DNA of 64,000 nucleotides from Acidobacteriota bacterium (GCA_046758905.1 JBHIBC010000005.1:4656-68655), one strand, 5' to 3'. Shown: positions 44,875-64,000, numbered from the stretch's first letter. Notes: generated by a model not told the origin, from the sequence alone. Program-made: numbers and translations.

Positions 44875-46896
44875 TTGGCGACTCGATCGCGGCGGCACGG
44901 CGGCCCGGAGCGAGGGACGCGGGGGGAGTTCGCGACGGCGCGCGGGCGCCGCGCGGGTGCGGGAGTGGGCGCGCGGCGCGCGGGGGCTGGCGCGCCGGCC
45001 ACGGTCGCGCTCGCGTGCGCGCTGTCTCTGATCTCGTGCCAGGCGGGGGGACCGGGCGCTTCCCGTGGCGGCGGGGGATCCGGGCGCGCCGCTCAGGGCG
45101 GCGCGGTGCCGGCCCGCGACATCCACTCCTTCAGCCGGCCGGAGGACGTGAGGGTCACCCACGCGGAGATCGACTGGACCGTCGACTTCGAGGCCCGGCG
45201 CATCCGCGGCAGCGTCACCTGGACGATCGAGCGCGCGCCCGGCGCTGAGGACGAGCCGCTCCTCCTCGACACGCGCGATCTGACGATCGAGTCGGTGGCC
45301 ACGCCGTCGGGCGCGCCGCTCGAGCACGAGCTTGCGCACCAGCACCCGGCCCTCGGCAAGGCGCTCGGGATCCAGGTGCCTCCGGGCGGGGACCGGGTCG
45401 TCATCCGCTACCGCACCGGGCCCGACGCGAAGGCGCTGCAGTGGCTGTCGCCGGAGCAGACCGCCGGGAGGAAGAGGCCGTACCTGTTCTCCCAGGCGGA
45501 GTCGATCCTGGCCCGCACCATGCTGCCGTGCCAGGACAGCCCCGCGGTGCGGTTCACCTACGGCGCCCGGGTGCGCGTCCCCGCGGGCCTGCGCGCGGTG
45601 ATGGCGGCACGGATGCTCCCGGGCGGCGGCGACGGCGAGCCGTTCCGGTTCGCGATGCCGCAGCCGATCCCGAGCTACCTGTTCGCCATCGCCGTCGGCG
45701 ACATCGCGTTCCGCGAGATCGGCCCGCGGTCGGGGGTCTACGCCGAGCCGTCGGTGGTCGAGCGGGCCGCCTGGGAGTTCGCCGACACCGAGAGGATGAT
45801 GGAGGCGGCCGAGCGGCTCTACGGGCCGTACCGCTGGGAGCGCTACGACATCCTGGTGCTGCCTCCGAGCTTCCCCTTCGGCGGGATGGAGAACCCGCGG
45901 CTGACCTTCGCCACGCCGACGGTGCTGGCCGGCGACCGCTCTCTCGTCTCGCTGGTGGCCCACGAGCTGGGGCACTCCTGGTCGGGGAACCTGGTCACCA
46001 ACGCCACCTGGGCCGACTTCTGGCTGAACGAGGGGTTCACGGTCTACCTGACCCGGCGGATCCTGGAGGAGCTGTACGGGAAGGAGCGGGCGGAGATGAA
46101 CGCGGTGCTCGGCAAGCAGGACCTGCTCGCGGAGATGCCGGACCTCGAGCCCGGCTTCACCGCGCTGCACAACGTGTCGCTGGACGGACGCGACCCCGAC
46201 GACGCCTTCAACGAGGTCCCCTACGAGAAGGGGTACCTGTTCCTGCGCCTGCTCGAGGAGGAGGTCGGGCGCCGGCGCTTCGACGCCTTCCTGAGGAGGT
46301 GGTTCGACGGCAACGCCTTCCGGAGCCGCACGACCTTCGACCTGGAGGAGGCGCTGCGCTCGGAGCTGTTCGCCGGGGACGAGGCCCGGCTTGAGGCGCT
46401 CCGGGTGAAGGAGTGGCTCTACGGGGAGGGGCTGCCGGACAACGCCCCCGAGCCGCGGACCGAGGCGTTCGCCCGCACGGGGGCCGAGGCGGCGGCGTTC
46501 GCGGCGGGCGAGAGACGGGCGCCGGACATCCCGGCGGGAGCCTGGACCACCCGGGAGTGGCAGCACTTCCTGCGCGCCCTGCCGCACGACGTTCCGGCCG
46601 CGAAGATGGCCGAGCTCGACGCCGCCTGGTCGCTCACCCGGTCGGGCAACGCGGAGATCCTGTTCGAGTGGCTCCTGCGCTCGATCCGCGCCCGCTACGA
46701 GCCGGCCTACCCGGCGCTGAGGAGGTTCCTCACCGAGCAGGGCCGGCGCAAGTTCCTCAAGCCCCTCTACACCGAGCTGGCGAAGACCGCGGAAGGGAAG
46801 CGGCGCGCCCTGGCGATCTACCGGGAGGCGCGGCCGCTGTACCATCCGGTCTCCAGCAGCACGATCGACGCCATCCTCGAGTACACGCCCGCCTGA
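44875..46896 (+). CDS. M1-family aminopeptidase, leukotriene-A4-hydrolase/cold-active aminopeptidase-like, lipoprotein
   Basis: TTG start with GGGGAGG 8 nt upstream; lipobox LISCQ. Exopeptidase motif GGMENP, zinc site VAHELGHSWSGN plus NEGFTVYL (HEXXH-18-E), LTA4H-like C-terminal ARM domain. Confidence 0.85.
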   Translation: MATRSRRHGGPERGTRGEFATARGRRAGAGVGARRAGAGAPATVALACALSLISCQAGGPGASRGGGGSGRAAQGGAVPARDIHSFSRPEDVRVTHAEIDWTVDFEARRIRGSVTWTIERAPGAEDEPLLLDTRDLTIESVATPSGAPLEHELAHQHPALGKALGIQVPPGGDRVVIRYRTGPDAKALQWLSPEQTAGRKRPYLFSQAESILARTMLPCQDSPAVRFTYGARVRVPAGLRAVMAARMLPGGGDGEPFRFAMPQPIPSYLFAIAVGDIAFREIGPRSGVYAEPSVVERAAWEFADTERMMEAAERLYGPYRWERYDILVLPPSFPFGGMENPRLTFATPTVLAGDRSLVSLVAHELGHSWSGNLVTNATWADFWLNEGFTVYLTRRILEELYGKERAEMNAVLGKQDLLAEMPDLEPGFTALHNVSLDGRDPDDAFNEVPYEKGYLFLRLLEEEVGRRRFDAFLRRWFDGNAFRSRTTFDLEEALRSELFAGDEARLEALRVKEWLYGEGLPDNAPEPRTEAFARTGAEAAAFAAGERRAPDIPAGAWTTREWQHFLRALPHDVPAAKMAELDAAWSLTRSGNAEILFEWLLRSIRARYEPAYPALRRFLTEQGRRKFLKPLYTELAKTAEGKRRALAIYREARPLYHPVSSSTIDAILEYTPA

Positions 46897-48886: not shown

Positions 48887-49030
48887 GCTACCATCCGCTT
48901 CGCGAGGGTGTCAAGGCGGCGACCCGCCGCGCCGCGCCGTCCGGAGCCGGCCGCGGGAGCCGCTCAGGCCCGAACGGCGCTTGCTGGAGGGCGGCGGCCG
49001 ACGTATAGTTCGGGGCATCAGCCCCCGAAA

Positions 49031-50737
49031 GTGGTGATTCGAGCCGTGCTGAATCGGGCCGTGGCACGTGATCGCGCGGCGCGGCTTCTCGTCGCGACCG
49101 CGCTTTTGTGCCAGCTCCCCGGCTGCGCCCGGGACGCCGAGGACGGTCCCGGCCCCGATCCGCCCGGCCGCACCGGAGGGAGCCTCCGCCTGGACGCGCC
49201 CCAGCTCGACCAGCTGAGGAGCCTTGACCCCGTGCGGGTCACCGACGTCAACAGCGGCTCGGTCGCGGCGGCGATCTACGAGGGCCTGCTGGGCTATTCG
49301 CCGGACTCCCCGGGCCACCTGGTCCCGCTGCTCGCCTCGTGGTGGGAGACGTCGGAGGAGGGCAGGGTCTGGACCTTCGGCCTGCGCGACGGGGTCCGCT
49401 TTCACGACGACCCCTGCTTCGAGGGCGGCCGGGGACGGCCCGTGACGGTCGAGGACGTGCGCGACTCGATCGTCCGGAGCCTGAGAGAGGGCGAGCGGGC
49501 CGCCCCGCTGTCGCTGCGCGACCTCATCGAGGGCGCCGGCGATCTCGGGGGCGGTCCGTCGGGCGAGGTCCCGGGCATAGAGATCGTGGACGAGACGACG
49601 ATCCGCTTCAGGATCGTGCGGGCCAGCGACGCCTTTCCGCACGCCCTCGCGACCTCGGCCGGCTGGGTGGTCCCGTGGGAGGCCCTGCGGCGGTACGGGG
49701 CCGGGTTCGGCCACCATCCGGTCGGGACCGGGCCGTTCCGCCTGGCCGGCTGGAACACCGAGACGATGGTGCTGGTGCGCAACGACCACTACTGGAGGAC
49801 GGACGCGGACGGAAGACGCCTCCCCTATCTCGACAGCATCGTCATGCGGCGCGGCGAGTTCTCCGGCCGCCGGCGCACGGTGCTGTCCGCCCTGCTGGAC
49901 GGGAGCCTCCACGCCGTGTACTTCACGGGGGAGCTCGACTGGGCGGAGTTCGGCCGCCTCTCCGAGTTCATGGGGGACAGGGGGGTCGGGACCGTCCGCA
50001 CGCCGAAGTTAAATACCATCTTCTACGGTTGGAACATGGCCCGGGACAACGTCTGGACGCGCCACCCCGAGCTGCGTCGCGCTGTGTTCCACGCGGTGAA
50101 CCGGCCGGCGCCGACCGACCTGATGGAGCCCGCCTCGGGCCTCCTCCCTCCGGGGCTCACCGAGTGCGCCGCGACCGAGCCGGCCCGGCGGGATCCGCGC
50201 CGCGCCCGCGAGCTGCTCCGCGAGGCCGGGTTTCCCGGGGGCCGGGGCCTGCCGCCGCTGCGGATCGGAGCCGTGGGCAGGACCGAGTACCTGCTGCGCA
50301 ACGTCCTCGAGCCCCTGGAGGAGGTCGGGATCGAGACCGATGTCCGGGTCACTCCCTGGGACCTTCACTGGGAGGCCCTCGAGCGCGGGGAGTACGAGTT
50401 CTTCCGGGACGGGTGGATCGCCGACTACCCCGACCCGGGGAACTTCTACCAGCTCTTCTACTCCGGCTCGGCCATGAACCACACCCGCTACTCCGACCCG
50501 ACCTACGACCGGCTGTTCGAGCGGTTCCAGGCGCTGCCCGCCGACAGCCCCGAGAGGCGCCGGATCTGCGCCCGGCTGGAGGCCATCCTGCGCCGGGACT
50601 GCCCGGCGGTCTTCCTCTATCACGAGCGATCGGTCTATCTGGTGCGGCGCGAGGTCCGAAACGTCGACGCCTTCGTCAATCCGTTCGAGCGCAAGTTCTA
50701 CGAGCTGGTGTGGCTGGATCGAGGGGCGCGGCCGTGA
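49031..50737 (+). CDS. Periplasmic solute-binding protein, family 5 (OppA/DppA/NikA-like), lipoprotein; no ABC permease or ATPase genes adjacent
   Basis: Lipobox LLCQLPGCA; SBP_bac_5 pattern (...RLPYLDSIV..., ...NHTRYSDPTYDRL..., ...AVFLYHERSVYLVRREVRN...). Start codon uncertain (GTG 49031/49034; the ORF opens at 48908). Stop overlaps the HK start (GTGA). Confidence 0.75.
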   Translation: MVIRAVLNRAVARDRAARLLVATALLCQLPGCARDAEDGPGPDPPGRTGGSLRLDAPQLDQLRSLDPVRVTDVNSGSVAAAIYEGLLGYSPDSPGHLVPLLASWWETSEEGRVWTFGLRDGVRFHDDPCFEGGRGRPVTVEDVRDSIVRSLREGERAAPLSLRDLIEGAGDLGGGPSGEVPGIEIVDETTIRFRIVRASDAFPHALATSAGWVVPWEALRRYGAGFGHHPVGTGPFRLAGWNTETMVLVRNDHYWRTDADGRRLPYLDSIVMRRGEFSGRRRTVLSALLDGSLHAVYFTGELDWAEFGRLSEFMGDRGVGTVRTPKLNTIFYGWNMARDNVWTRHPELRRAVFHAVNRPAPTDLMEPASGLLPPGLTECAATEPARRDPRRARELLREAGFPGGRGLPPLRIGAVGRTEYLLRNVLEPLEEVGIETDVRVTPWDLHWEALERGEYEFFRDGWIADYPDPGNFYQLFYSGSAMNHTRYSDPTYDRLFERFQALPADSPERRRICARLEAILRRDCPAVFLYHERSVYLVRREVRNVDAFVNPFERKFYELVWLDRGARP

Positions 50738-52578
50738 AGCGGCGGATGCAGCGCAACCTGGTGCTGCTGTTTCTCGGCTCCTCGGCGGTGCCCCTGGCCG
50801 TGGTGGCGGGGATCGGGTACTACGTCTCGACGCGCTCCATCGTGTCGATGGTGAGGCGGCGGGCCGCCTTCTCCTGTAAGGAGATCGACCGGCGCTTCAC
50901 GCGGCGGATGCGCAGGGTCGAGGACCAGTTCCAGCTGGTCGCCGGCGGCGGGGGCACCCTGCCGGGGGAGTGGGAGGCGCGGGCACGGCTGCGGGACGGC
51001 CGGGCGGAGTTCTACGTCGAGGACCTCGTCCTGGAGGCGGGCCTCGACCGGAGGTTCACGCGCCTCGTGATCCTGGACGCCGACGGCGCCCCGCGCTACA
51101 AGATCGACTATCGCCGCGTGCCGGTGCGGGGACCCGGCGGCCCGCGCTACTTCCTGCAGACCGCCCGCTTCCGGCCGGAGGACGCACGGGGCTACGAGGA
51201 GGCGGCGCGGCTCGGGCCCTCCGAGACCCGCGTGCTGCTGCCGGGCCCGGACGCCGGGACCATGGTGATCCGCCTGGCCACCCCCCTGTTCTCGGGGCGG
51301 CGGCGCCTCGGCACGCTGCTGGCCGACTTCGACGCGGCGGGCATCCTGGAGTCGGTGATCGGGGGCATGAGCCTCGGCAAGGACGCGTTCCACTTCCTGG
51401 TCGATTCGAGAAGCGGCGTGCTCCTGTCCCACCCGGACTACTCGCGCAGGAACCAGCTCCTGGCGGTGGCCATGCCCTCCCTCGGCCCGGACTTCCTCGG
51501 CGGGCGGGCGGACGGATGGGCGAGATTCCGCGACGCCGGCGGGCAGGAGTGGATCGTCTCCCGGCGCAGGCTGGCGGGCACGCCCTGGGTGGTCGCGGTG
51601 GCGGGCCCTTTGGGCTCCTTCCTCGCGCCGATCCAAAGGGTCGGGCGGCTGCTCCTGTTGCTGGTCCTCTTCGTCCTGACCGGGGCCTCCCTGGTGATCC
51701 TCCTGGCGACCAGGCGGTTCCGGCGCTCGCTGGCCTCGCTGACCGCGGCGGCGCAGTCGTTCTCATCGGGCGACCTGAGCCGGCGGGTGGAGGTGCGCTC
51801 GGACGACGAGATGGGGGCGCTAGGGCGCACTCTCAACAGCATGGCGCGCGACCTCCGGCGGGAGATCGAGCGGAGGGAGCAGAGCGCCCGCATCGAGTCG
51901 TTCAACCGGCTGGCGGCGGCGGTCGCCCACGACCTCAAGAGCTCCCTCTTCAGCCTGTCGCTCCTGCTGGACAATCTCGACCGGCACGCGGGCGAGCGGC
52001 AGTTCATGAAGGACTCCGCGCTGACCATCCGCAAGGCGCTCGAGAAGCTGAAGAAGACCAGCGAGAGGTTGGCGTGCCCCCCGTCGGGCGCCGCGGTGCG
52101 CCTCGAGCCGCTGGAGCTGTCGTCGCTTCTTCGGGCCGCCCTCGACGAGTCGGGCGCCGGGCGCCGCCCCGGGCTGCGGGTCGAGGCGGACCTGCCGGAG
52201 GGGGTGAGCGCCCTCGGCGAGCGGGAGGAGACCGGGAGGCTGTTCCTGAACCTGGTGCAGAACGCCGTGGAGGCGATGCCCGGCGGGGGCACCCTGCGCC
52301 TCTCGTGCAGGCGAGTCGAGGATCGGGCCGGCGGCGCGGCCTGGGCGGAGGTCACGGTGGAGGATTCGGGCGCCGGGATGTCGTCCGACTTCCTGCGCCG
52401 GAGGCTGTACCGCCCGTTCGCCAGCACCAAGGCCGGGGGGATCGGGCTCGGCCTGTATACCTGCCGGGAGATCGTCGAGCGCCACGGGGGCCGGATCGAG
52501 GTGCGGAGCGAGCCGGCCCGGGGGAGCGTGTTCCACGTCCGGCTGCCCGCCCCGGCCGCGCGGGCGACCCACGCATGA
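50734..52578 (+). CDS. Sensor histidine kinase with periplasmic Cache-like domain, HAMP, HisKA, HATPase_c
   Basis: TM1 LVLLFLGSSAVPLAVVAGIGYYV, about 270-aa periplasmic domain, TM2 LLLLLVLFVLTGASLVILLA, HAMP, H-box AAVAHDLKSSL, N/G boxes (NLVQNAVEAM, DSGAGM, GGIGLGL). Alternative start ATG 50746. Confidence 0.8.
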   Translation: MKRRMQRNLVLLFLGSSAVPLAVVAGIGYYVSTRSIVSMVRRRAAFSCKEIDRRFTRRMRRVEDQFQLVAGGGGTLPGEWEARARLRDGRAEFYVEDLVLEAGLDRRFTRLVILDADGAPRYKIDYRRVPVRGPGGPRYFLQTARFRPEDARGYEEAARLGPSETRVLLPGPDAGTMVIRLATPLFSGRRRLGTLLADFDAAGILESVIGGMSLGKDAFHFLVDSRSGVLLSHPDYSRRNQLLAVAMPSLGPDFLGGRADGWARFRDAGGQEWIVSRRRLAGTPWVVAVAGPLGSFLAPIQRVGRLLLLLVLFVLTGASLVILLATRRFRRSLASLTAAAQSFSSGDLSRRVEVRSDDEMGALGRTLNSMARDLRREIERREQSARIESFNRLAAAVAHDLKSSLFSLSLLLDNLDRHAGERQFMKDSALTIRKALEKLKKTSERLACPPSGAAVRLEPLELSSLLRAALDESGAGRRPGLRVEADLPEGVSALGEREETGRLFLNLVQNAVEAMPGGGTLRLSCRRVEDRAGGAAWAEVTVEDSGAGMSSDFLRRRLYRPFASTKAGGIGLGLYTCREIVERHGGRIEVRSEPARGSVFHVRLPAPAARATHA

Positions 52579-52582
52579 CGGG

Positions 52583-52708
52583 GGCGCGGACGGCGGCGGT
52601 GCGGGCGACGGCGGCGCGGATGACGGCGGCACGGACGGCGGCGGTGCGGACGGCGGCGGTGCGGGCGACGGCGGCGCGGATGACGACGGCGCGGGCGACG
52701 GCGGCGCG
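52583..52708. repeat. Imperfect 15-nt tandem repeat (GACGGCGGCGGTGCG-like, about 8 copies; two 45-nt super-units) in the HK to RR intergenic region
   Basis: Direct inspection: gacggcggcggtgcgggc/gacggcggcgcggatgac/ggcggcacg... repeats twice. Ends immediately at the bEBP ATG (52712), which has no obvious SD. Confidence 0.6.
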
Positions 52709-52711
52709 GAC

Positions 52712-54103
<1,392 letters not shown>

Positions 54104-54128
54104 GCGGCCCGCGCCCGCCGGTCTTCCT

Positions 54129-54300
54129 GATCGCCGCGCTTGCCCGGCGCGCGACCGTCCCGATCGCCGCGCTTGCCCGCCCGCTGTCCTCCCGGCCGTC
54201 GCGCTTGCTCGCCCGCGCTCCTCGCGGCCGCCGGCTCTCGCGCCCGCGATCGTCCCGATCGGCACGGCTCCGGCGCCGCTGATCGTCCCGAACGGGACGG
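54129..54300. promoter_or_regulatory. Cluster of direct repeats, candidate enhancer (UAS) sites upstream of the sigma54 promoter
   Basis: GATCGCCGCGCTTGCCCG twice (about 54129 and 54162), variant GTCGCGCTTGCTCGCCCG (about 54198), and GATCGTCCCGATCGGCACGG / GATCGTCCCGAACGGGACGG (about 54249 and 54281). 110-280 bp upstream of the -24/-12 element. Confidence 0.35.
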
Positions 54301-54408
54301 CCGGTCCCGCGCCGCGCCTGCCCGGATCGCCGTCGCCGCGCGGCGGGAGCGGCCCAACCCTCCACGGGGCGATAAGTTGCGGCCGCGGCGGCCGGGCCGC
54401 CCGCGCGC

Positions 54409-54425
54409 CTGGCACGCCGCGTGCT
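54409..54425 (+). promoter_or_regulatory. Sigma-54 (RpoN) -24/-12 promoter: CTGGCACGccgcgTGCT
   Basis: Matches the YTGGCACGr-N3-TTGCW consensus at 16/17 positions, with exact GG to GC spacing (GG 54411-12, GC 54423-24). 46 nt upstream of the receiver gene and directly downstream of the bEBP gene. Confidence 0.6.
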
Positions 54426-54481
54426 GGAAGGACCAGAGGACGGCCCGCCTCGGCGACGAGGTCGAGCGAGCGGGAGGGACC

Positions 54482-54853
54482 GTGGGCGGGAAGACCAGAG
54501 TCCTGATCGTCGATGACGACCCGGAGGTCCTGAGCCAGCTCCGCTGGGCGCTGCGGGAGGAGTTCGACCTGCTGCTGGCGGCCAGCCCCCCGGAGGTCGA
54601 GGCGCTGCTGCTCGAGGCGAGCCCGCCGGCGGCCGCGCTGGTCGACCTGCACCTGCCGCCCGAGACCTCGTCCATCGACGGGGGTATCGCCGTCATCCGC
54701 GCGCTGAGGAGGGCCTCCGCCGCCACCCGGATCGTCGCCATCTCCGCCTACCCGAGCGAGGACTCGGACCGGCGTTCCCGCTCCGCGGGGGCGTCGATGC
54801 TGCTGAGCAAGCCGGTGCGGCGCGCGCGGCTTCTGGAGCTGCTGGGCGGATGA
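54482..54853 (+). CDS. Response regulator, receiver (CheY-like) domain only
   Basis: GTG start with GGGAGGG just upstream. VLIVDDD...D(LLLAA)...LVDLHLPP phospho-acceptor Asp, ...VIALSAYPS.. and K in LLSKP: a complete REC fold with no output domain. Confidence 0.7.
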   Translation: MGGKTRVLIVDDDPEVLSQLRWALREEFDLLLAASPPEVEALLLEASPPAAALVDLHLPPETSSIDGGIAVIRALRRASAATRIVAISAYPSEDSDRRSRSAGASMLLSKPVRRARLLELLGG

Positions 54854-54932
54854 GCCGCTTTATCACGTCACGAACGCCGCAATCGCCGTTGGGCGGGTGA
54901 GGTTTCCGATGGTCGCCAATCAGAGGAGCGAG

Positions 54933-57900
54933 ATGAAGGTCACACGACGCGTCGCTCGGGCGCGTGCCGCCTGGGCGATCCCGCTGACGGCCCTGCTCCT
55001 GTTCGCCCTCGGGGGGCGCGCGCCGGTCGAGAGGGACGAGCACGGGCGCATCCGGAACAGGCCTGTTCGCAGGGTGGAGCTGCAGGGGATCAGGGTCACG
55101 CTCGAGCAGCTGCAGCGCATCGACGCGCAGCTCGGGAAGCCCGAGCGCAGGGTCATTCCGTTCATGGAGCGGCCGGCACCAACGGAGCTTTCCGAGCCGG
55201 CGTCCTCCTCTCCGGCGCCGTCGGAGGGGAGAAGCCTCGAGCGCGAGCCGAGTCCGCGGGAGCCCGGCGCCGGCCCGCCCCAGGCACAGGGGGCGGAGCA
55301 GGGAGGATATGAATCGGCCGCCTCCCCGGCGGCGGCGCCTCTGGCCAACGATTTCCCGGGCATGAAGGACGATCTGACGGTGATCCCGCCCGACACCCAC
55401 GGGGCCGCCGGTCCCGACTTCCTCGTGAGCGTCCTCAACCGCGGCTTCGCCGTCTTCGACAAGGCGACCGGGACGATCGTCTTCGGGCCGATCTCCCTGC
55501 AGGCGTTCTGGGCCCCCCTGGGCACGGCGCCCGGGGATCCGGCGAGCGATCCATTCGATCCGAGGGTGATCTACGACCAGTACGCCGGCCGGTTCATCGT
55601 CACCTCGGCCGGCGGACGCTGCGGTCCCGCCTCCTGGATCCTGGTGGCGATCTCGATCTCGAGCGACCCGAACGCGGGGTTCACCCTGTACGCCGTCCGG
55701 GCGGACGCGACGACCCCGGGGCAGTGGGCGGACTATCCTGCGGTCGGCGTCAATCCCGACAACATCTACATCACCGCCAACATGTTCGACAACGCCGGCA
55801 GCTGCCCCCGGGGCGCCGCCTCTCACCCCGCCAAGTTCTGGGCGATCGAGAAGGCCGCGCTTGTGGGCGGAACGCTCGCGTTCAGCGAGTTCATCGATGT
55901 CGTCGGCGGCGGGACGTGGCAGCCCACCCACGCCTTCGGCCCGACCCCGGTCAACTACATCATCAACGAGGGATGGTCGGTGAGCCCCGGCACGAGGCAG
56001 CTGCGCATCCAGGAGTTCTCGGGCCCGGTCGGATCGCCGATCCTCACGGATCTCGGCTTCATCCAGGTCGCCCGCTACGGCCTGGACCTGATCGAGGACG
56101 CCCCGCAGCTCAACTGCTCGGCGAGGATCGAGACGAACGACTTTCGGCTGCTCGACGCCGTCCTCAGGAACAACAAGATCTGGGCGACGCACCACGTGGA
56201 CGACCCGGTCGCGGACGGCGTCGGGAGGACGGAGGTCGCCTGGTACGAGATCGATCCGACCCAGGCGATGCCGTCTCCCGGCCCCTTCGCCGGCCCGATC
56301 CAGCAGGGACGGGTGAGCGGCGGCCCCCCCGCGGGCCTCAGGTACTACTACCCGTCCATCGCGGTGAACGCCGCCGAGTGCGTGGCGCTGGGGTTCTCGG
56401 GGTCGGACGGCTTCAACCCCGCGAGCGGCTTCTACACCTCGCGGGAGCCGAACGATCCGCCCGGAACGATGGGCCCGGTCTCGCCCCTCAAGGGCGGGGT
56501 GGATCCCTACTTCAAGGAGTTCCTCCCGCCGCTGTGCGCGGTGAGCGTCCAGTTCGAGGCGGAGCCCCCGCCCCCTCCCCCCCCGCCGAACCAGTTCGTG
56601 GTCGGGTCGACCATCTTCGACCCGGGCGCGATCATGACCGTCACTCCCTTCTTCTTCAGCGACGGCACGCAGTTCAGCGGCGGGTACGCCGAGATCTCCC
56701 TGGCGAACCAGGCGCTGGGGACGGGCCAGGAGCTGGCCATCAACAACGTCAACATCGACTTCAGCTTCAGCTGCACCGAGGGCGCGACGATCCCCAACCT
56801 GACGCTGAAGTACGCCGAGCTCGGCGGCAACATCAATATGGAGATCAACGGCGACTTCAGGAACTTCCAGGACTTCATCAACGTCAGCGGGCTGGTCATC
56901 GGCGGCGTCCGGGTCACCGCCACGGACTTCGGCCCGCCCGGCAACGGTCCCGGGATCCTCTCCCTCCAGGGGACGATCTTCTCCTTCAGCCTCGGCGGTC
57001 AGGAGCTGTGGATCGACGACGTCAGGAGCTCGCTCGCGGCGTTCACGAGGAACCGCTGGGGCGATTACAGCGCCACGGTGATCGACCCGAGCGACGGGAG
57101 CTTCTGGACCATCCAGGAGTACGCCGAGCAGGAGCTGGCGCCGGGGTGCAACGCCCCCGACACCGGCGTGTGGGGGACCTGGTGGGGCAACTTCGCCTGC
57201 GCGGCGATCCCCTGCAGCGTCGACGCCGACTGCGACGACGGGGTCTTCTGCAACGGCGCCGAGGTCTGCCAGAACGGCCTCTTCTGCGGGCCCGGCACAC
57301 GGCCTTCCTGCGACGACGGGAACCCCTGCACGATCGACAGCTGCGACACCGGCTCCGACTCGTGCCTGAACGCTCCCGCCCCCGACACGGAGAGAGCCGC
57401 GGGTGCCGACGGCAACTGCGACACGGCGGACGACAACCTGGATCTCTTCGGTCCCGACGGCCTCTGCGGCACGAGCGACGACGGAGCGGGGGACGGCACC
57501 TGCGACGCCGTCGACAACTGCCCGGGCAGGTACAACCCCGGCCAGGAGGACGCCGACCGGGACGGGCTCGGGGACGTCTGCGACGCCGATCCGTGTCCGG
57601 CCGGGCTCGTCTACGTGACCGAGTCGGGCGGCGCCAGTGGAGAGCTGTCGGTGGTCGACCTCCTCACGGGGACCGTCTCGGTCATAACGAGCGGGCTCTC
57701 CGGCCCGAGCGGGGTCTCCCTCAACACGGCCGGGACCAAGGCCTACGTTTCGGAGTCGGGCGGCCAGCAGCTGCTGGAGATCGATCTCGCGACCGGCGTG
57801 CCCAGCTTCATTTACGGGCAGTGGCCCCAGGAGGGGGTGGCCGTCTGCGACCTCGGGACCCACGGCTACGTGACCGAGGTCGTGATGGGCAACGCCGGCG

Positions 57901-59825
57901 CCCTCACGATGGTGAACCTCGGCAGCGGCTCGATCTTCCCCTTCAACGTCGGCGCCCCGCCGACGGGCGTCGACCTCAACGGAGCCAACACCGCCGCCTA
58001 TGTCCTGGAGCCCGGCCCCGGGACGCTCGAGGAGGTGATACTCGGCGGGGTGTGCGGGGTCCCCGCACTCATCAACACCGTGACCGGCGCGCTGAGCAGC
58101 CCCGAGAAGATCGCGGTCAACGCCGCGGGCACCCTCGCGTACGTCACCGAGCTCGGGACCGGGAGCCTCCTGGAGATCGATCTCGCCACGGGGATCCGGA
58201 CGGCCATCGCCACGAGCCTGATCAACCCGACGGGTGTCGATCTCAACCCGGCCGAGACCACGGCCTACGTGACCGAGCAAGGGAGCGGGCGACTGCTGTC
58301 GGTCGACCTCGCCACCGGCAACGTGACGACCGAGGCGTTCGGCCTGTCCGTCGCCACGGACGTGGCGTTTCAGCCCGGGGGCAACACGATCAGCATGCCC
58401 GACGGCGTCACTGGCTTCTCCGGCTCGAGCATCGTGGTCCCGGTGAGTCTCACGGACATCACCGGCCAGGGGGTCTTCTCCGTCGATCTGACGGTCCGCT
58501 ACAACAGGGCCGTGCTTCAGATCCCGACCACGCCCGCGCCCAACGGCGGCGTGGCGCTCGGGAGCCTGGCGAGCGGCTGCACGCTGACGACCAATCTGAA
58601 CACCCCCGGCGAGGCGGTCATCTCGGTGTTCTGCAGCTCCGCCATGAGCGGCTCCGGCTCCCTGGTGGAGATCACCTTCAACGTCATCGGCGCCGCCGGG
58701 ACCGGAAGCCCGCTCGACATCGTCACCGCCGCGCTCAACGAGGGGACCCCGGGCGTCTGCGTGGACGACGGTTCCGTCTCGATCCCCGAGTTCATCGCCG
58801 GGGCGATCCGCTACTACCGGGACCAGGCGAGCGCCACGGAGCCCGGGACGCAGCCGGTCGACGCCGCGGCGGTCGATCTCACCGGGTTCATCAATACGAC
58901 GACGAGCACCGACTGCAGCGGCGCCTACACCTTCACCCCCGTGACCCTGAACCAGGACTACAGAGTCACTCCGGGCAAGCTGAACGACTTCGACGCGGGG
59001 ATCGACCCGTTCGACGCCTCGCTGAACGCCCAGCACGTGGTCGGCCTCATCACTCTCACGCCGAATCAGCAGCTGGCGGCCGACGTGACGGGCAACGGGA
59101 CACTCACCTCCTTCGACTCCGCCATGATCGCGCGCTTCACGGTCGGGTCGATCACGCGGTTCCCCGTGGCGACGACCAACGGCAGCGACTGGACCTTCGT
59201 CCCGGTCCCGCAGACGGAGCCGAACCAGACGGTGGTCAACCCCGTGCCGTCGGCGGGCGTTCAGGGGAGCATCTCCTACACGCCGCTCGCCCGCTCGGCC
59301 GCCTCGCAGGATCTCCTGGGGGTCCTCTACGGGGATGTCTCGGGCAACTGGCAATCGAGCTGCACCTCGGGCGCGGCGAGCCTGCCCTTTGCCGCCTCAC
59401 TCGAGGCGCCCAAAGGTGTGAGGCAGCACGGCCCCGCCGGCCGTCTCGTCCTGCCCGCGGTCGCGGCGCGGCCGGGCGAGCTGATCCAGGTGCCGATCAG
59501 GGCCCTGGGGACCGGGGATGCGGTCTCCTTCTACCTGGATCTGCGTTTCGACCCCTCCGTCCTGAGCGTCGAGCGGATCGAGGTGGGGGACGCGGCCCCC
59601 GGCTTCAGCCTCGCGTCGAATCGGGACGACCCCGGGCGGGCGCGGATGGCCCTGTTCCATACGCTTCCCTTGCGGGCCGGGGGCGAGGTCGCGGTCGTCA
59701 CCTTCCTGGTGGTCGGCAAGCCGGGTGACGCGACGGCGCTCACGCTGCCGGCCTTCACGGTCAACGAGGGGCGGATCAGGGCCGTGGTGAAAGAGGGGCT
59801 GGTCCGAGTCGTCCCCGGACGCTGA
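54933..59825 (+). CDS. Giant secreted multi-domain surface protein (1630 aa): N-terminal unknown domain, poly-Pro linker, Cys-rich (Myxococcus-type) repeats, thrombospondin-type-3-like Ca-binding repeats, YVTN/NHL-like beta-propeller, cohesin-like and dockerin-like modules, C-terminal cohesin-like domain
   Basis: ATG 54933 with AGAGGAG RBS; signal peptide. PPPPPPPP linker (about aa 545). CDDGNPCTIDSCD-type repeats. DxDxDG Ca-binding loops (GADGNCDTADDNLD, DADRDGLGDVCDADPC). Five repeats of ..AYVTE.G.G.LL.IDLATG.. (propeller blades). Cohesin-like beta-sandwich segments (VPVSLTDITGQGVFSVDLTVRYNRAVLQ; LIQVPIRALGTGDAVSFYLDLRFDPSVLS). Dockerin-like segment DVTGNGTLTSFDSAMIARFTVG. Confidence 0.8.
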   Translation: MKVTRRVARARAAWAIPLTALLLFALGGRAPVERDEHGRIRNRPVRRVELQGIRVTLEQLQRIDAQLGKPERRVIPFMERPAPTELSEPASSSPAPSEGRSLEREPSPREPGAGPPQAQGAEQGGYESAASPAAAPLANDFPGMKDDLTVIPPDTHGAAGPDFLVSVLNRGFAVFDKATGTIVFGPISLQAFWAPLGTAPGDPASDPFDPRVIYDQYAGRFIVTSAGGRCGPASWILVAISISSDPNAGFTLYAVRADATTPGQWADYPAVGVNPDNIYITANMFDNAGSCPRGAASHPAKFWAIEKAALVGGTLAFSEFIDVVGGGTWQPTHAFGPTPVNYIINEGWSVSPGTRQLRIQEFSGPVGSPILTDLGFIQVARYGLDLIEDAPQLNCSARIETNDFRLLDAVLRNNKIWATHHVDDPVADGVGRTEVAWYEIDPTQAMPSPGPFAGPIQQGRVSGGPPAGLRYYYPSIAVNAAECVALGFSGSDGFNPASGFYTSREPNDPPGTMGPVSPLKGGVDPYFKEFLPPLCAVSVQFEAEPPPPPPPPNQFVVGSTIFDPGAIMTVTPFFFSDGTQFSGGYAEISLANQALGTGQELAINNVNIDFSFSCTEGATIPNLTLKYAELGGNINMEINGDFRNFQDFINVSGLVIGGVRVTATDFGPPGNGPGILSLQGTIFSFSLGGQELWIDDVRSSLAAFTRNRWGDYSATVIDPSDGSFWTIQEYAEQELAPGCNAPDTGVWGTWWGNFACAAIPCSVDADCDDGVFCNGAEVCQNGLFCGPGTRPSCDDGNPCTIDSCDTGSDSCLNAPAPDTERAAGADGNCDTADDNLDLFGPDGLCGTSDDGAGDGTCDAVDNCPGRYNPGQEDADRDGLGDVCDADPCPAGLVYVTESGGASGELSVVDLLTGTVSVITSGLSGPSGVSLNTAGTKAYVSESGGQQLLEIDLATGVPSFIYGQWPQEGVAVCDLGTHGYVTEVVMGNAGALTMVNLGSGSIFPFNVGAPPTGVDLNGANTAAYVLEPGPGTLEEVILGGVCGVPALINTVTGALSSPEKIAVNAAGTLAYVTELGTGSLLEIDLATGIRTAIATSLINPTGVDLNPAETTAYVTEQGSGRLLSVDLATGNVTTEAFGLSVATDVAFQPGGNTISMPDGVTGFSGSSIVVPVSLTDITGQGVFSVDLTVRYNRAVLQIPTTPAPNGGVALGSLASGCTLTTNLNTPGEAVISVFCSSAMSGSGSLVEITFNVIGAAGTGSPLDIVTAALNEGTPGVCVDDGSVSIPEFIAGAIRYYRDQASATEPGTQPVDAAAVDLTGFINTTTSTDCSGAYTFTPVTLNQDYRVTPGKLNDFDAGIDPFDASLNAQHVVGLITLTPNQQLAADVTGNGTLTSFDSAMIARFTVGSITRFPVATTNGSDWTFVPVPQTEPNQTVVNPVPSAGVQGSISYTPLARSAASQDLLGVLYGDVSGNWQSSCTSGAASLPFAASLEAPKGVRQHGPAGRLVLPAVAARPGELIQVPIRALGTGDAVSFYLDLRFDPSVLSVERIEVGDAAPGFSLASNRDDPGRARMALFHTLPLRAGGEVAVVTFLVVGKPGDATALTLPAFTVNEGRIRAVVKEGLVRVVPGR

Positions 59826-59842
59826 CCGCCGGAGGTCGTGGG

Positions 59843-60712
59843 ATGGGACGCGTGGAGCGGCCTGTGAGGCACGACCCGGGGCGGCGCGACCCGGGACGGT
59901 GCGACCCGGGGCGGCGCGACCCGGGACGGCGCGACCGTTGCCAATCTCGGTTCGGGCCACGGCGGGCCGCACTCGGGATGATCCTGCTCCTGCTGGCGGG
60001 CTCAGGCTCGTCGGGCCTCGCCGCGACCCTGAGCCTGCCAGCCGGCGCGGGCGCACCACCGGGCGCCTCCACGGTGGTCCCTCTCCAGGTCGACGACGCG
60101 GCGGGGATGCTGGGGACCGACATCCTCATCGCCTACGACCCCGCGGTGGCGATCGCCACCGGCGTCTCCCCGACCCCCCTCTCGGCGAGCCAGACGCTGA
60201 CCGTGAACCTGAACGGTCCCGGCGTGATCGTCATCTCGCTGTTCGGCGCGTACCCCCTGGACGGGAGCGGGGCCCTGCTGGATCTCTCCTTCACCTCGGT
60301 CGGACCCCTGAACAGCCGGACGGTCCTCGACCTCGCGTCGGCCGACATCAACGAGGGGGGGATCCCGGTGATGCTGCTCGACGGGCAATACTGCGTACAG
60401 GGGCCGACCGAGGAGGTTCGGGGCCTCGAGGCCGGCCTCGCCGCGCCCGGTTCCACGGTGGCGATACTGAGCTGGGCCCCCGATCCCTTGGCGGCCTCCT
60501 TCAACGTCTATCGTGGCGAGAGCCCCGACCTGAGCGATCTCGCCTGCTTCCTTCCCGGCGTCACGGGCACCTCGACCGCGGACGACGGAGCCCTCCCGCC
60601 GGGCGGGCTGTTCGTCTACATGGTGACTGCGGCCAACTGCCGAGGCGAATCGACGCTGGGGTTCGACTCGACCGGCTCGGAGCGGATGAACTCAGCGCCC
60701 TGCAGCCCTTAG
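59843..60712 (+). CDS. Cohesin-domain-containing secreted protein with C-terminal FN3-like module
   Basis: ATG 59843 has GGAGGT 7 nt upstream (alternative ATG 59978, before the hydrophobic MILLLLAGSGSSGLAA). Cohesin-like type segment VVPLQVDDAAGMLGTDILIAYDPAVAIATGVSP...LLDLSFTSVG. The C-terminus ...ILSWAPDPLAASFNVYRGES... resembles an Ig/FN3-like domain. Confidence 0.65.
   Translation: MGRVERPVRHDPGRRDPGRCDPGRRDPGRRDRCQSRFGPRRAALGMILLLLAGSGSSGLAATLSLPAGAGAPPGASTVVPLQVDDAAGMLGTDILIAYDPAVAIATGVSPTPLSASQTLTVNLNGPGVIVISLFGAYPLDGSGALLDLSFTSVGPLNSRTVLDLASADINEGGIPVMLLDGQYCVQGPTEEVRGLEAGLAAPGSTVAILSWAPDPLAASFNVYRGESPDLSDLACFLPGVTGTSTADDGALPPGGLFVYMVTAANCRGESTLGFDSTGSERMNSAPCSP
59872..59937. repeat. 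15-nt tandem repeat CGACCCGGGRCGGYG x about 4.4 (encodes (DPGRR)n if the upstream start is used)
   Basis: Direct inspection of 59872..59937: perfect 15-nt periodicity with R/Y alternation. Confidence 0.6.
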
Positions 60713-61030
60713 GCCGAGCCTTCATCCTCCGATGCCGTCCCCAACATCTCGCCCGGGGAGGCGTGGCCCGCGATCCGTCTCGATACGTCGCGTGCCACCC
60801 GGCGGTTCGCCGGCCGTCGGGGCGACGGGCTCCGCCGCCTCCATAACGGCGGACCCGTCCGGCCGCCAGCGTGGGGCGCGAATGTCGATTGTCAAAGAGC
60901 CAGGGCTCTCGAGGCGGCGACGGCTGCCTGAGTTCCGCGCCGGGCCGACGGCTTCCAGAGCCTGACGTGAGGCGCGCCTCCCCGCGCGAGAAGCGGGCGC
61001 GGGGGTGGGCGCGCCTCCCGACGCGCGACC

Positions 61031-61215
61031 GTGGGGGCGGGCGCGGCCCGCGAGGAGCCGGCGCGCCGACACGCAGCTCCCGAAGAACTAGCGTGGGGGC
61101 GGGCGCGGCTCGCGAGGAGCCGGCGCGCCGACACGCAGCTCCCGAAGAACTAGCGTGGGGGCGGGCGCGGCTCGCGAGGAGCCGGCGCTAAGGCGCACGC
61201 GCGTCGCGAAAGACT
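61031..61215. repeat. 62-bp direct tandem repeat, about 3 copies (GTGGGGGCGGGCGCGGCYCGCGAGGAGCCGGCGCGCCGACACGCAGCTCCCGAAGAACTAGC), third copy degenerate
   Basis: Copies at 61031..61092 and 61093..61154 differ by one base; a third at 61155.. diverges after 35 nt. Lies in the convergent intergenic region between the cohesin gene and the HNH gene, overlapping the HNH 3' end. No spacers, so not CRISPR. Confidence 0.7.
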
Positions 61216-63869
61216 AGCGCCAGGGCGGGCGCAGGCACCTCTCGGGAACCGGGCGTCCCGCCAACCGGCGCGCGGTCCCGGGGAGCCCGGCCGGTCCCGC
61301 GGAGGCTCTCGCCGAGGTAGCGCGCCAGAGGGGGGCCGTCGGGCCTGACGCCCAGCTCCCACCACAGATCCGAGTTCGCACGGCCGGAGCAGCGCAGCCA
61401 TCCCTGGTGGATTCCCCGCTGGTGATGTCCCACGCACAGGGTGATGAGGTTGTCGTCCTCGTCGCCTCCGCCGCGCGAGCGGAAGATGATGTGGTGCTCG
61501 TTGAGGTTGCTGCGCGAGGAGCACCCGGGGACCCGGCAACGCCAGCCGTCGCGCTCGAAGATGCGATAGCGCCGGCGCCAGCCCGCGTCGCCCGGGTTGT
61601 CCCACGTCTCGCGCAGCGACCGGATGAGCATGACGAGACACTCCCAGTCGCGGAGATCGCGGCCCGCGACGCCGCGGCACGCGCGCAAGGCGCTGTGCCA
61701 GAGTGCGGCGACGTCCGTGGGCGCCCAGAAGGAGATCCGGTGAATCGGCCACCACCACGCCTGGGTCCGGCCCCGGCGATCGGCCTGTCCCGTGGGGTCG
61801 GCCGCGGCGGCTGGCGCCGGGCTCTTGGGGCGCGCAGACGTGTGCCGCGCGGTCCCGGGGCGAGGGGACGGGTCCGCAGGCGGGAGGGGCGCGCCCGATC
61901 GCCCGTCCCAGGACAGGGTCCGGGCCAGCGCGCAGATGTGTGCCGCCTCGGGGGCGGGGGCGGCGGGTGTATCCCCTGTGTCCGGGACCGGGGGCCCGCT
62001 CGCCGACTCCGAGGGTGCGGGGGCGCGCGTCCCGCTCGGGACCGGGGGCCTGGTCGCCGCGGGCGGGGCGGCGGGTGGGTCGGCGGGCGCCGCGGCGGGC
62101 GGGGCGGTGGCGTCCTCCCGCATCGCCGTGGCGATGTCGCAGAGGGCCACGACCTCCTCGAGGCGGCGCACCGTCACGCGCCGGGCGTAGCGGATCCACC
62201 GGCCCTGGGTCTCGGGCCGGACGACCCGGACCAGATGGCGCGCGTGGCACCAGGTGATGAGGCCTCGCCTGTAAGCGTCGGCCAGCAGCGGGAGGCTGCG
62301 AAGTCGCCGATCCAGCGCGATCAGGTAGCGGGCGCGCCGGGGCGACATCCCGAGCGCGGCGCGGCACCAGTCGCCCAACGAGTCGGACCCCAGATCGCGA
62401 TAGAGCCGGGTCCCGGCCAGGGTGGCGAGAAGGCGACCCTGGCGCCATGCGAGCGACTGGCGGAGACGGACCAGCCCCCGAAGCCGTGCGTCCAGATCCC
62501 AGGGGTCGGGCGCCTGCCCCGCCGATTCGCCTCCGGCCCGGGCTCCGTCCGCGCCGGCCGCCTGACCGGGAGCGACCGCGCCGGAGCGGGCTCCGGACCC
62601 GAGAGCGTCCGCACGGGAATCGACCGCCAGGGCGCCCGCCGGCAGCGACGACCCGGGATCGGGAGGGATCTCCGGCGCGCGGCCCGCGAGAATGCTCTCG
62701 GGATCGGCGGCGGAGCCCAGGGGGCTCAGAGCCTCCCGGACAACGGCGGATACCTCCGACCAGACGCGCAGGCCGAGGAGCCCCTCGGCGGCGCCGGTGG
62801 ACGGGCGGGGCGCATCCGCGCCGCCTCCCGCGCGGTCGGCCTCGCTCGCGGCGGCTGGAGGGGGTGGCGGGGCCGCGTCCGTACCGGGGCCCGCGCCGTC
62901 AGGCTCGATCGTGGTGCCGGGAGTGGGCGCTGGGAGCGCGTCCGCGGGTGGAGATGGGATCGCGCCGGCGGCGCCGGGATTCCTCGAGGTGGTGAGGGGG
63001 ACCGTGCCGTTCGCTCGGTCCGGAGCGTCCTTGACATCGGGGACTCCGGAGAGGAAGTCGGCGGCCAGGTACTCGGCGCAGCGCCAGGCCGGCTCCTGGT
63101 GACCGGCGACGCGACGGATGAGATCGAGCGCCCAGTGCCAGAGGGCCACGACCTGCCCCGGCGCCTTAAAAGAGATGAAGCGGCCCGGGTCGTCCTGCCC
63201 CACGGCGGCGTCGGCCTGCGGCGCAGATGTGTGCCGCTGAGGAGCGGCCGGCTGCGCAGCCCTGTGCCGGTGGGGCAGGGACGTCTCGGCGGTCGTCTCG
63301 CCCGTGGTCGTGGTGGCTCCGTCGGGCGCGGCGTCCGGATCCCTCGGGAGCCGAGCCGGGTCATCGGGCTCTCGGCCCGGCTGGGGCTGGGAGCATCCCG
63401 GATCTGCGGGCGTTTGGGGCGGCCGGCGCCCTGCGGACCCCGGACCCTCGGGCGCGGGGGTCTGGCGGCGCTCCACGCGCGCCAGGTCCTCCAGCTCGCG
63501 GACCGTCAGGCGCCGGGCCCGCGCGAGCCACAGTGCCTGGGTGGCGGCGGTGGAGGCGGCGGCGATGACCCGAAGCTTCGACGGCGGGAGGTCGCCGGCG
63601 TCGAAGGCGCGGGCGACGTGCGGCAGGACGCGCAGGGCGCGGTCCATCCTGAGGAGCGACTGGGCGCGGCGGAGGCTCATCCCGAGCCGCTCCGTCAGGT
63701 AGTCGGCGAGCCGGACGTAGCCGAGCCGCCGGAAGCGGCCCTCGCCGCTCATCAGGTAGAGGCCCCTGCCGAGTCGGCGCTCGATGACGGCGCCGGCGCG
63801 GGTCAGGCGCAGGAGCTGAGACTCGAGAAGGCGGGCCGCCAGGCCGCTGGTGACGGCGGAAGCATCGAC
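61188..63869 (-). CDS. HNH endonuclease with duplicated DUF222-like N-terminal domains
   Basis: Start ATG 63869 with AAGGAGG 4-5 nt upstream (MMPRPG...). C-terminal HNH: RDGWRCRVPGC...NLNEHHIIFRSRGGGDEDDNLITLCVGHHQRGIHQGW. Two internal repeats of a DUF222-like module (...LTVRELEDLARVER...ISFKAPGQVVALWHWALDLIRRVAG and ...VTVRRLEEVVALCD...ISFWAPTDVAALWHSALRACRGVAG), separated by Pro/Ala-rich low-complexity linkers. Confidence 0.8.
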   Translation of the reverse strand, partial: VDASAVTSGLAARLLESQLLRLTRAGAVIERRLGRGLYLMSGEGRFRRLGYVRLADYLTERLGMSLRRAQSLLRMDRALRVLPHVARAFDAGDLPPSKLRVIAAASTAATQALWLARARRLTVRELEDLARVERRQTPAPEGPGSAGRRPPQTPADPGCSQPQPGREPDDPARLPRDPDAAPDGATTTTGETTAETSLPHRHRAAQPAAPQRHTSAPQADAAVGQDDPGRFISFKAPGQVVALWHWALDLIRRVAGHQEPAWRCAEYLAADFLSGVPDVKDAPDRANGTVPLTTSRNPGAAGAIPSPPADALPAPTPGTTIEPDGAGPGTDAAPPPPPAAASEADRAGGGADAPRPSTGAAEGLLGLRVWSEVSAVVREALSPLGSAADPESILAGRAPEIPPDPGSSLPAGALAVDSRADALGSGARSGAVAPGQAAGADGARAGGESAGQAPDPWDLDARLRGLVRLRQSLAWRQGRLLATLAGTRLYRDLGSDSLGDWCRAALGMSPRRARYLIALDRRLRSLPLLADAYRRGLITWCHARHLVRVVRPETQGRWIRYARRVTVRRLEEVVALCDIATAMREDATAPPAAAPADPPAAPPAATRPPVPSGTRAPAPSESASGPPVPDTGDTPAAPAPEAAHICALARTLSWDGRSGAPLPPADPSPRPGTARHTSARPKSPAPAAAADPTGQADRRGRTQAWWWPIHRISFWAPTDVAALWHSALRACRGVAGRDLRDWECLVMLIRSLRETWDNPGDAGWRRRYRIFERDGWRCRVPGCSSRSNLNEHHIIFRSRGGGDEDDNLITLCVGHHQRGIHQGWLRCSGRANSDLWWELGVRPDGPPLARYLGESLRGTGRAPRDRAPVGGTPGSREVPAPALALVFRDARAP

Positions 63870-63936
63870 GCCTGGCCGGGGCATCATGCGACCTCCTTTC
63901 CGAGGGGGCCAGGTCAATCGACGCGGGCGATGGCGA

Positions 63937-63964
63937 GTATGGTGTAAGTCAAGCGAAAAGTCAA
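63937..63964 (-). promoter_or_regulatory. Putative sigma70 promoter for the HNH gene inside an AT-rich island (TTGACT-17-CATACT on the minus strand) with upstream A/T tract (UP-element-like)
   Basis: Minus-strand reading ...aaatttttttgcattttcttcTTGACTtttcgcttgacttacacCATACTcgcc...; local GC far below the window average. Confidence 0.35.
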
Positions 63965-64000
63965 GAAGAAAATGCAAAAAAATTTCCGGCCCCGCCGGGC

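Follow-up and report, generated by a model that had tools for sequence, protein, structure and literature searches.

Introduction

In a stretch of DNA of 64,000 nucleotides from an Acidobacteriota bacterium (GCA_046758905.1 JBHIBC010000005.1:4656-68655), hereafter the window, the gap between the gene of a bacterial enhancer-binding protein (bEBP) and that of a stand-alone receiver domain holds a sequence, at positions 54409-54425, which looks like the -24/-12 element of a sigma-54 (RpoN) promoter. Is this sequence a promoter, or one of the look-alikes that chance supplies in GC-rich DNA? And, should it be a promoter, which protein would act on it and what would it express? An earlier note on the window had read the site as an RpoN promoter driving both the receiver and the surface-protein genes behind it.

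Sequence comparison makes it very probable that the element works as a sigma-54 promoter. The proposal of the earlier note is sustained by the conservation of the element at nine loci, by its first rank with a position weight matrix (PWM), by conserved palindromes upstream and by an adjacent bEBP with a GAFTGA loop. More broadly, we consider it likely that this promoter heads an operon formed by the receiver gene and the genes of a 1642-amino acid and a 289-amino acid protein, with a PrsR/NtrC-like activator and its kinase encoded upstream, and that the receiver may act as a phosphate sink.

The -24/-12 element and its position

The features first needed are the following:

54409-54425, plus strand: sigma-54 -24/-12 element CTGGCACGCCGCGTGCT, with GG at 54411-54412 and GC at 54423-54424
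54472-54478, plus strand: Shine-Dalgarno sequence GGGAGGG, 3 nt ahead of the GTG start codon
54482-54853, plus strand: receiver-only (REC) gene, 123 amino acids, matching Pfam Response_reg only; first behind the promoter, and conserved there

The element is placed on the coding strand of the receiver gene, within an intergenic gap of 378 nt (54104-54481). It starts 305 nt past the bEBP stop codon (54103), close to the 300 nt or so estimated earlier, and ends 56 nt ahead of the receiver GTG (54482); the 46 nt given in the earlier note for the latter distance is in fact that between the predicted transcription start, near 54436, and the start codon. The location of the motif was confirmed, together with its canonical spacing (GG-N10-GC, exact in CTGGCACGCCGCGTGCT), and the agreement with the consensus had to be corrected: compared with YTGGCACGR-N3-TTGCW, the element departs twice (C in place of R at -19, G in place of T at -15), and thus matches at 12/14 informative positions, equivalent to 15/17 rather than the claimed 16/17. 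A search of the 64-kb window with this consensus gave no match at one mismatch or fewer, CTGGCACGCCGCGTGCT appearing at two.

The GTG at 54482 is also the receiver start in the gene call of a contig identical to the window (L086), and GGAGG-type sites likewise precede the start codon in the orthologous loci L081, L082, L084 and L088. No Rfam family matched the intergenic region, and a scan for sigma-70-type promoters between 52400 and 61300, on both strands, gave no promoter-like site.

Chance, read-through or promoter

A sceptical reading would take CTGGCACGCCGCGTGCT for a GC-rich look-alike, the receiver operon owing its transcripts to read-through out of the bEBP gene or to a housekeeping promoter that went unrecognised. 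A terminator scan over 52400-61300 is compatible with such read-through, as it predicted a single terminator-like site, on the minus strand, and none between the bEBP and receiver genes. The motif statistics are compatible as well. TGGCAC-N5-TTGC with at most one mismatch occurs once, the expectation from dinucleotide shuffles of the window being 1.68, and the 17-mer with at most two mismatches also occurs once, with 1.36 expected by chance. Judged by the motif score alone, the site does not rise above the background of GC-rich chance matches with which the earlier note had wished it compared (1 observed, 1.4-1.7 in shuffled windows at an equal mismatch level). The window contains no second match of such quality, and this one sits behind its only bEBP gene; nonetheless, since the motif score is unremarkable in a window with 72% GC, the claim of a promoter must rest on context and comparison.

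The comparison set comprised the contigs of receiver orthologues in public assemblies, all of which were retrieved. The receiver-only protein has there one identical copy (in L086, which was not counted) and 10 orthologues with 55-70% identity. A -24/-12 element precedes the receiver start in 8 distinct metagenomic loci besides the window, 9 in total, the sequences outside the window being:

L081: TGGCACGGACCCTGCT
L082/L083: TGGCACGACCCCTGCA
L084: CGGCACGGCCCGTGCT
L085: TGGCACGCTCCCTGCT
L087: TGGCACGATCCGTGCT
L088: TGGCACGCTCCCTGCT
L108: TGGCACGCGACCTGCT
L110: TGGCACGGGCCGTGCT

The GG-N10-GC spacing is exact at 9/9 sites, and the lineage consensus can be written as TGGCACG-N3-C-(C/G)-TGCT, with T or C as the first base and T or A as the last across the loci. 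All 9 related sites have C or G instead of T at -15, so the G found there in the window is typical of the lineage and no defect. In the seven loci where they were measured, the predicted 5' untranslated regions span 14-52 nt. When six upstream regions were aligned with MAFFT (A1), the only invariant runs of any size were GGCACG..C.TGC and the two palindromes described below, the rest having diverged. Furthermore, a PWM built from six sites, none from the window, places window position 54410 first among ~128,000 positions, with 16.6 bits.

It is this comparison that speaks against a chance resemblance. The element is kept at the same place in 8 diverged loci whose spacers are essentially unalignable, it ranks first with a PWM blind to the window, and the chance of a lineage-type element within 120 nt is ~2e-4 per locus (an analytic estimate from base composition, for 120 nt of one strand). 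Moreover, L081 and L088 retain element and palindromes though their upstream gene is not a bEBP; as there is no bEBP gene to read through from, an autonomous promoter is indicated rather than read-through. A look-alike served by read-through or by a housekeeping promoter thus appears very improbable.

The runner-up of the PWM scan (TGGCCCGCACCATGCTG, window 45509-45525, 12.0 bits) is inside an M1 aminopeptidase gene (44875-46896), and is probably a chance match.

The same bases could also be read as GCACG-N3-CGTGC, that is, as the palindromic operator of a conventional dimeric repressor or activator with no relation to RpoN. The inverted repeat is indeed perfect or near-perfect in the window (GCACGccgCGTGC), L087 (GCACGatcCGTGC) and L110 (GCACGggcCGTGC), but 5/9 sites, having CCTGC, lack the palindrome, and the invariant GG 5' of GCAC lacks a symmetric partner, the 3' flank being TGCT(C/G) and not TGCCA. 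The unvarying GG-N10-GC spacing, the GAFTGA-containing bEBP and the palindromes at enhancer distance all fit RpoN, and we give the operator hardly any credence over a sigma-54 promoter.

Candidate enhancer sites upstream of the promoter

The sigma-54 promoter is preceded by these features, which carry no strand:

54251-54266: distal upstream activating sequence (UAS, enhancer) candidate CGTCCCGATCGGCACG, centred near -177; 19.5 bits, the top palindrome-PWM match of the window
54284-54299: proximal UAS candidate CGTCCCGAACGGGACG, a perfect palindrome centred near -144; 18.5 bits, the second best match
54156-54171: CGTCCCGATCGCCGCG, a third and weak candidate for an activator site (palindrome PWM, 9.3 bits)
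54370-54379: cgATAAGTTg, rich in AT and near -60, where the DNA might bend or bind an architectural protein
54113-54339: phased array of ~6-7 units of 32-33 bp (found by Tandem Repeats Finder with periods of 32 and 33 bp, 79-80% matches)

Two 16-bp palindromes (CGTCCCGAtCGGgACG) are thus found 33 bp apart, 111-159 bp upstream of the window element, the proximal one differing by one mismatch from GTCCCGATCGGGAC. The PWM used to score them is symmetric and was built solely from sites outside the window; both window palindromes align to conserved islands in A1. Site pairs are 31-33 bp apart in 5/6 loci measured (the window, L081, L082, L084 and L088). In L087, the two half-matching sites are separated by 22 bp and share bases with a longer inverted repeat, and two similar sites ~32 bp apart were recognized by eye in L108. 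Across the loci, the gap between the proximal palindrome and the -24/-12 element amounts to ~75-111 nt, and the conserved pairs are placed ~75-125 bp upstream. The weak third candidate of the window resembles degenerate sites of L108, L084 and L087. On these grounds, GTCCCGAtCGGGAC is put forward as a candidate recognition sequence for a subfamily of PrsR/NtrC-like activators previously without a known site.

Closer to the promoter, AT content peaks at -60 in 6/6 loci analysed, with a mean of 0.58 compared with 0.13-0.25 at -50 to -20. The best matches to the IHF consensus WATCAA-N4-TTR in the spacer between UAS and promoter have 2-4 mismatches, and no IHF site was called.

The array at 54113-54339 (repeat family D2), within which the window palindromes are set, is specific to the window, whose intergenic region is unusually long when compared with the orthologous loci. 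Each unit contains a left half-site similar to (G)TCCCGATCG, and only two contain an intact palindrome; the array looks like a tandem duplication of an activator-site unit. Two other explanations for the palindromes were rejected. As a terminator hairpin they would have a 2-nt loop and no T-run, and they are also present where no bEBP gene precedes them; a dispersed repeat is incompatible with strong copies restricted to this intergenic region.

The third-best palindrome-PWM match of the window (TGCTCCGGTCGGGACA, 34442-34457, 15.9 bits) is inside an open reading frame (ORF) at 32290-34572, with no -24/-12 element nearby, and is probably due to chance.

The proposed activator and the sensor block

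Which protein would bind these sites? Upstream of the promoter there is a block of three genes:

48908-50737, plus strand: family-5 solute-binding protein gene (Pfam SBP_bac_5, E 6.6e-59), first gene of a conserved sensor block
50728-52578, plus strand: histidine kinase gene with a dCache-HAMP-kinase core architecture (Pfam dCache_1, HAMP, HATPase_c); the start is approximate, GTG 50728 or ATG 50740
52712-54103, plus strand: gene of an enhancer-binding response regulator (REC-AAA+-HTH_8, Pfam), the proposed activator

The bEBP matches Pfam Response_reg (E 5.8e-20), Sigma54_activat (E 6.5e-69), AAA_lid_14 and HTH_8 (E 6e-11), and its GAFTGA loop is intact, at window 53381. Its make-up is that of the NtrC family: a receiver, a GAFTGA-bearing AAA+ domain and a Fis-type helix-turn-helix (HTH). 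L082 keeps the full gene order, with identities of 55% for the solute-binding protein, 51% for the kinase, 66% for the activator and 55% for the receiver, the promoter lying between the last two. The HTH segment GGN[RK]T[RQ]AA..LG..RHVL is shared by the bEBPs of the window, L082, L084, L087 and L108.

An activator encoded elsewhere might nonetheless be the one that binds the palindromes of a real sigma-54 promoter, the local pair of kinase and bEBP controlling other targets. The occurrence of promoter and palindromes in L081 and L088 without an adjacent bEBP gene would agree with this, as would the size of the bEBP family, with 192 confirmed relatives in one scan of a genome collection. The linkage observed points to the local protein instead: of the 7 loci with a visible upstream gene, 5 have immediately upstream a bEBP gene that encodes this HTH recognition segment, the palindromes begin 2-22 nt past the bEBP stop codon in L084, L087, L108 and L082, and the window has no other bEBP. 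A distant activator is accordingly judged unlikely, and the adjacent bEBP is retained as the protein that would bind the palindromes.

The 133-nt gap between the kinase stop (52578) and the activator start (52712), in the region 52570-52711, is taken up almost entirely by a G-rich 15-nt unit, GACGGCGGCGCGGAC, in ~9 tandem copies (repeat family D1, 80% matches), which are non-coding in the frames of both flanking genes. In L082 the kinase and bEBP genes overlap by 4 nt, without an insert of the GACGGCGGCGCGGAC type.

The stand-alone receiver as the constant predicted output

The receiver gene is followed by two genes on the same strand:

54897-59825, plus strand: gene of a 1642-amino acid secreted or surface protein (Pfam Cohesin, E 1e-15, and a weak SGL hit)
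59843-60712, plus strand: gene of a 289-amino acid cohesin-like protein (weak Pfam Cohesin, E 3.4e-4, below cutoff)

The larger protein has propeller-like repeats, calcium-binding repeats similar to thrombospondin type 3 and an N-terminal hydrophobic signal-like segment; a PDB sequence search with its residues 1-834 found no relative. The 289-amino acid protein is 35% identical to its cohesin region, with a gap of 17 nt between both genes. This second gene is probably the last of the operon, the next one being on the opposite strand.

The cohesin protein of 1642 amino acids is not conserved in the orthologous loci, and represents locus-specific cargo. In L081, L082, L087 and L110, the second gene encodes large secreted proteins of one shared family, in whose L082 member a MopE-type metal-binding motif was recognized; in L084 it encodes a subtilase, in L085 a C39-like protein that also has a MopE-type motif, and in L108 an unrelated secreted protein. 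The earlier note's assignment of both receiver and surface proteins to this promoter is therefore upheld for the receiver, since the conserved element lies ahead of its gene, and qualified for the surface proteins, which are not a conserved output. The constant predicted output is the receiver-only gene rather than the surface proteins, and a small receiver as constant output, instead of large secreted proteins, hints at self-limiting signalling.

In L088 (1421-2073), the receiver orthologue is followed, with a 4-nt overlap, by groES (Cpn10, E 3.6e-30), the region upstream of the receiver orthologue containing the palindromes and the -24/-12 element as in the other loci. This locus would place a chaperonin gene behind a sigma-54 promoter.

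What might this receiver do? Its residues D11, D12, D13, D55 and K110-P111 are invariant in 13 aligned sequences, with S or T at the A[FI][ST]A position; it thus has the acidic pocket, the Asp, the Ser/Thr and the Lys of a phosphorylatable single-domain response regulator, and no output domain. In NCBIfam it is matched best by the receiver part of PrsR, with 46.5 bits compared with <=30 for other families, and its alpha-1 segment, TQLRWAL.DEF, resembles the TQLSWALGDEH of the bEBP receiver. These two likenesses favour a kinase shared by both receivers. From sequence, the most likely role is that of a self-induced competitor for the phosphoryl groups of the kinase, that is, a phosphate sink, a plausible idea already raised in the earlier note.

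The promoter could also be as described and the receiver serve as an output or connector which, when phosphorylated, binds a protein partner and so controls a pathway such as secretion or folding. It is common for single-domain receivers to have protein partners (as do CheY, DivK and CpdR), the similarity between both receivers is just ~30%, and an invariant receiver amid varying cargo suits a general signalling part equally well. The orthologue contigs show no conserved partner gene alongside the receiver, and the PrsR-type best match and the bEBP-like alpha-1 favour the shared kinase. A connector is, in our opinion, a serious possibility that we nevertheless do not prefer to the phosphate sink.

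Proposed mechanism and points against it

Taken as a two-component system with a phosphate sink, the locus would work as follows. The dCache-HAMP kinase, possibly informed by the family-5 solute-binding protein, would phosphorylate the adjacent NtrC/PrsR-like activator, its presumed partner, which would then oligomerise on the palindromes at 54251-54266 and 54284-54299 and perhaps on further degenerate sites in the 33-bp array; being 33 bp apart, the two palindromes would lie on the same face of the DNA. DNA looping, perhaps aided by the AT-rich patch near -60, would bring the activator to the closed RpoN-holoenzyme at -24/-12, where ATP hydrolysis via the GAFTGA loop would open the promoter, and transcription would begin at ~54436. 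The first product would be a phosphorylatable receiver resembling that of the activator, which may drain phosphoryl groups from the kinase and so act as a self-induced brake. The wiring had earlier been termed feed-forward, which is the wrong term: the genes form a linear cascade, possibly with an arm that feeds back.

Besides the motif counts, several observations weigh against this proposal. No ORF with an RpoN box is present within the 64-kb window. In L089 and L109, the receiver orthologue is directly behind another gene, and the upstream region read has no -24/-12 element; these loci represent a sub-lineage with another arrangement, in which the promoter may sit further upstream. The binding of the palindromes by the bEBP is deduced from adjacency in the 5/7 loci mentioned. 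The identity between the stand-alone receiver and the bEBP receiver is ~30% overall, and the BLAST alignment spans the first 35 residues only. Finally, the best relative in the genome-collection scan with the bEBP, from a species-representative Candidatus Krumholzibacteriia metagenome-assembled genome (L001, 56% identity, a loose taxonomic hint at most), has a different HTH, a convergent repeat-protein gene downstream and no matching promoter; L001 was consequently rejected as an orthologous regulatory region on account of its downstream context and HTH, and the other 79 loci of that scan are paralogues with ~40-46% identity.

As for the genes preceding the receivers P0006 and P0008 in L089 (3-1562) and L109 (1-839), their encoded C-termini look alike by eye, and the L089 gene encodes thrombospondin type 3 repeats.

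Relation to known systems

The locus has the architecture of a classic NtrC-type enhancer-dependent promoter, a textbook arrangement in a new place. The reference is NtrB/NtrC-glnAp2 of enteric bacteria, where a kinase and a REC-AAA+-HTH activator control a -24/-12 promoter through two dyad sites ~three helical turns apart and ~100-150 bp upstream; these NtrC sites are near -140 and -108, and follow TGCACC-N5-GGTGCA. The window shares with it the two-component kinase and activator, the RpoN promoter and the paired dyad sites, here near -177 and -144 and 33 bp apart. It differs in the site itself (GTCCCGAtCGGGAC), in the bEBP, whose NCBIfam NtrC score is 443 bits in comparison with a cutoff of 558.6, in the sensor, a membrane dCache-HAMP kinase beside a solute-binding protein whereas NtrB is cytoplasmic, and in the targets, which are a receiver and secreted proteins instead of nitrogen assimilation genes.

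Among the named NCBIfam families, PrsK/PrsR, the PEP-CTERM regulatory system, gives the best scores for the bEBP (472.3 bits, followed by NtrC with 443 and AtoC with 433), for the kinase core (165.8) and for the receiver (46.5). In the PrsK/PrsR system, a 17-nt activator motif, sometimes repeated, is found some tens of nt upstream of -24/-12, and the promoter averages 71 nt ahead of genes for secreted or surface proteins, with long intergenic regions (Haft et al., 2006, PMC1569441). The likeness extends to these traits: an activator motif upstream of -24/-12, secreted or surface targets and long intergenic regions. Motif 1 of this system ends in TTTACA, and the published motif is confined to Proteobacteria (PMC1569441). 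Membership was rejected on the grounds of score, sensor, motif and targets: the bEBP falls below the PrsR (TIGR02915) equivalog cutoff (472.3 vs 502.6 bits); the kinase falls below that of PrsK (TIGR02916; 165.8 vs 300 bits), matching profile positions 463-679 only, and its sensor part is dCache_1 plus HAMP and not the PrsK-specific membrane domain; and the GTCCCGAtCGGGAC palindromes are unlike the motif ending in TTTACA expected of a PEP-CTERM system. The two proteins encoded downstream gave no PEP-CTERM domain hit in Pfam and NCBIfam scans.

ZraSR-zraP and PspF-pspA exemplify sigma-54 systems in which the principal target acts back on the sensor or the activator. The conserved product of the RpoN promoter described here would also be a small regulator of the same pathway and not a metabolic enzyme, but neither ZraP nor PspA is a receiver domain, and both act through protein binding, whereas competition for phosphoryl groups is proposed here. 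Phosphate-sink single-domain response regulators are represented by CheY1 of Sinorhizobium meliloti, and the receiver resembles this type in standing alone, in its complete phospho-acceptor pocket, in its lack of an output domain and in being encoded beside a two-component system that it could drain; sinks of the CheY1 type differ in belonging to chemotaxis pathways. We know of no sink induced by the sigma-54 activator of its own pathway. Were the receiver a phosphoryl decoy, the locus would contain a negative-feedback module, for a pulse or for adaptation, built into the sigma-54 two-component system of an uncultured lineage that is possibly related to Krumholzibacteriota.

More speculatively, and with clear doubt on our part, the palindromes, the AT patch, the RpoN promoter and a receiver paralogous to the PrsR-like receiver of the activator could make up a portable cassette, the cargo of which is swapped between lineages (cohesin giants, MopE-motif giants, a subtilase or even groES); this cassette, and not a two-component system with surface proteins, would then be what evolution has conserved. 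The general understanding of sigma-54 regulation is left unchanged by these results; what is gained, for an uncultured high-GC lineage, is an RpoN consensus (TGGCACG-N3-C-S-TGCT), a candidate activator site (GTCCCGAtCGGGAC) and a defined regulon head.

Metagenome-wide scan and other features of the window

An exact scan across metagenomes for a half-palindrome followed, after 95-125 nt, by TGGCACG-N3-CSTGCW gave 18 hits, of which 12 correspond to one recurrent gut-metagenome coding sequence and 2 more are apparently coding. None of the 18 precedes a receiver orthologue, the JGI loci L082, L083 and L085 are not among them, and the scan did not expand the regulon; this outcome agrees with a rough estimate by which chance hits rival real ones. 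The recurrent sequence is shared by 12 contigs (L092, L095, L096, L098-L102 and L104-L107) with ~50% GC, at least one of them labelled as human gut; it is apparently coding by eye, and unrelated to the promoter described here.

The remaining hits, which have a good -24/-12 element and appear non-coding by eye, are L097 911-1035, L103 269-409, L093 2372-2503 and L094 2717-2847 (matched-strand coordinates). In L097 (68% GC), ATGGCACGCAGCCTGCT is found 12 nt ahead of a 309-amino acid ORF with a signal- or lipobox-like N-terminus. No receiver orthologue follows any of these four hits, which could be genuine promoters of the sigma-54 type, belonging to systems that are unrelated or only distant relatives.

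Within the window, an ORF on the minus strand (61188-63977, 929 amino acids) converges on the end of the operon; it has Pro/Ala low-complexity segments and a weak C-terminal HNH match (Pfam E 4e-4, just below cutoff). A palindrome match with one mismatch, GTCCCGCTCGGGAC, lies inside it at 62029-62042. A tRNA-Met (CAT) at 31938-32014 is the only RNA gene assigned by Rfam or ARAGORN in the 64 kb.

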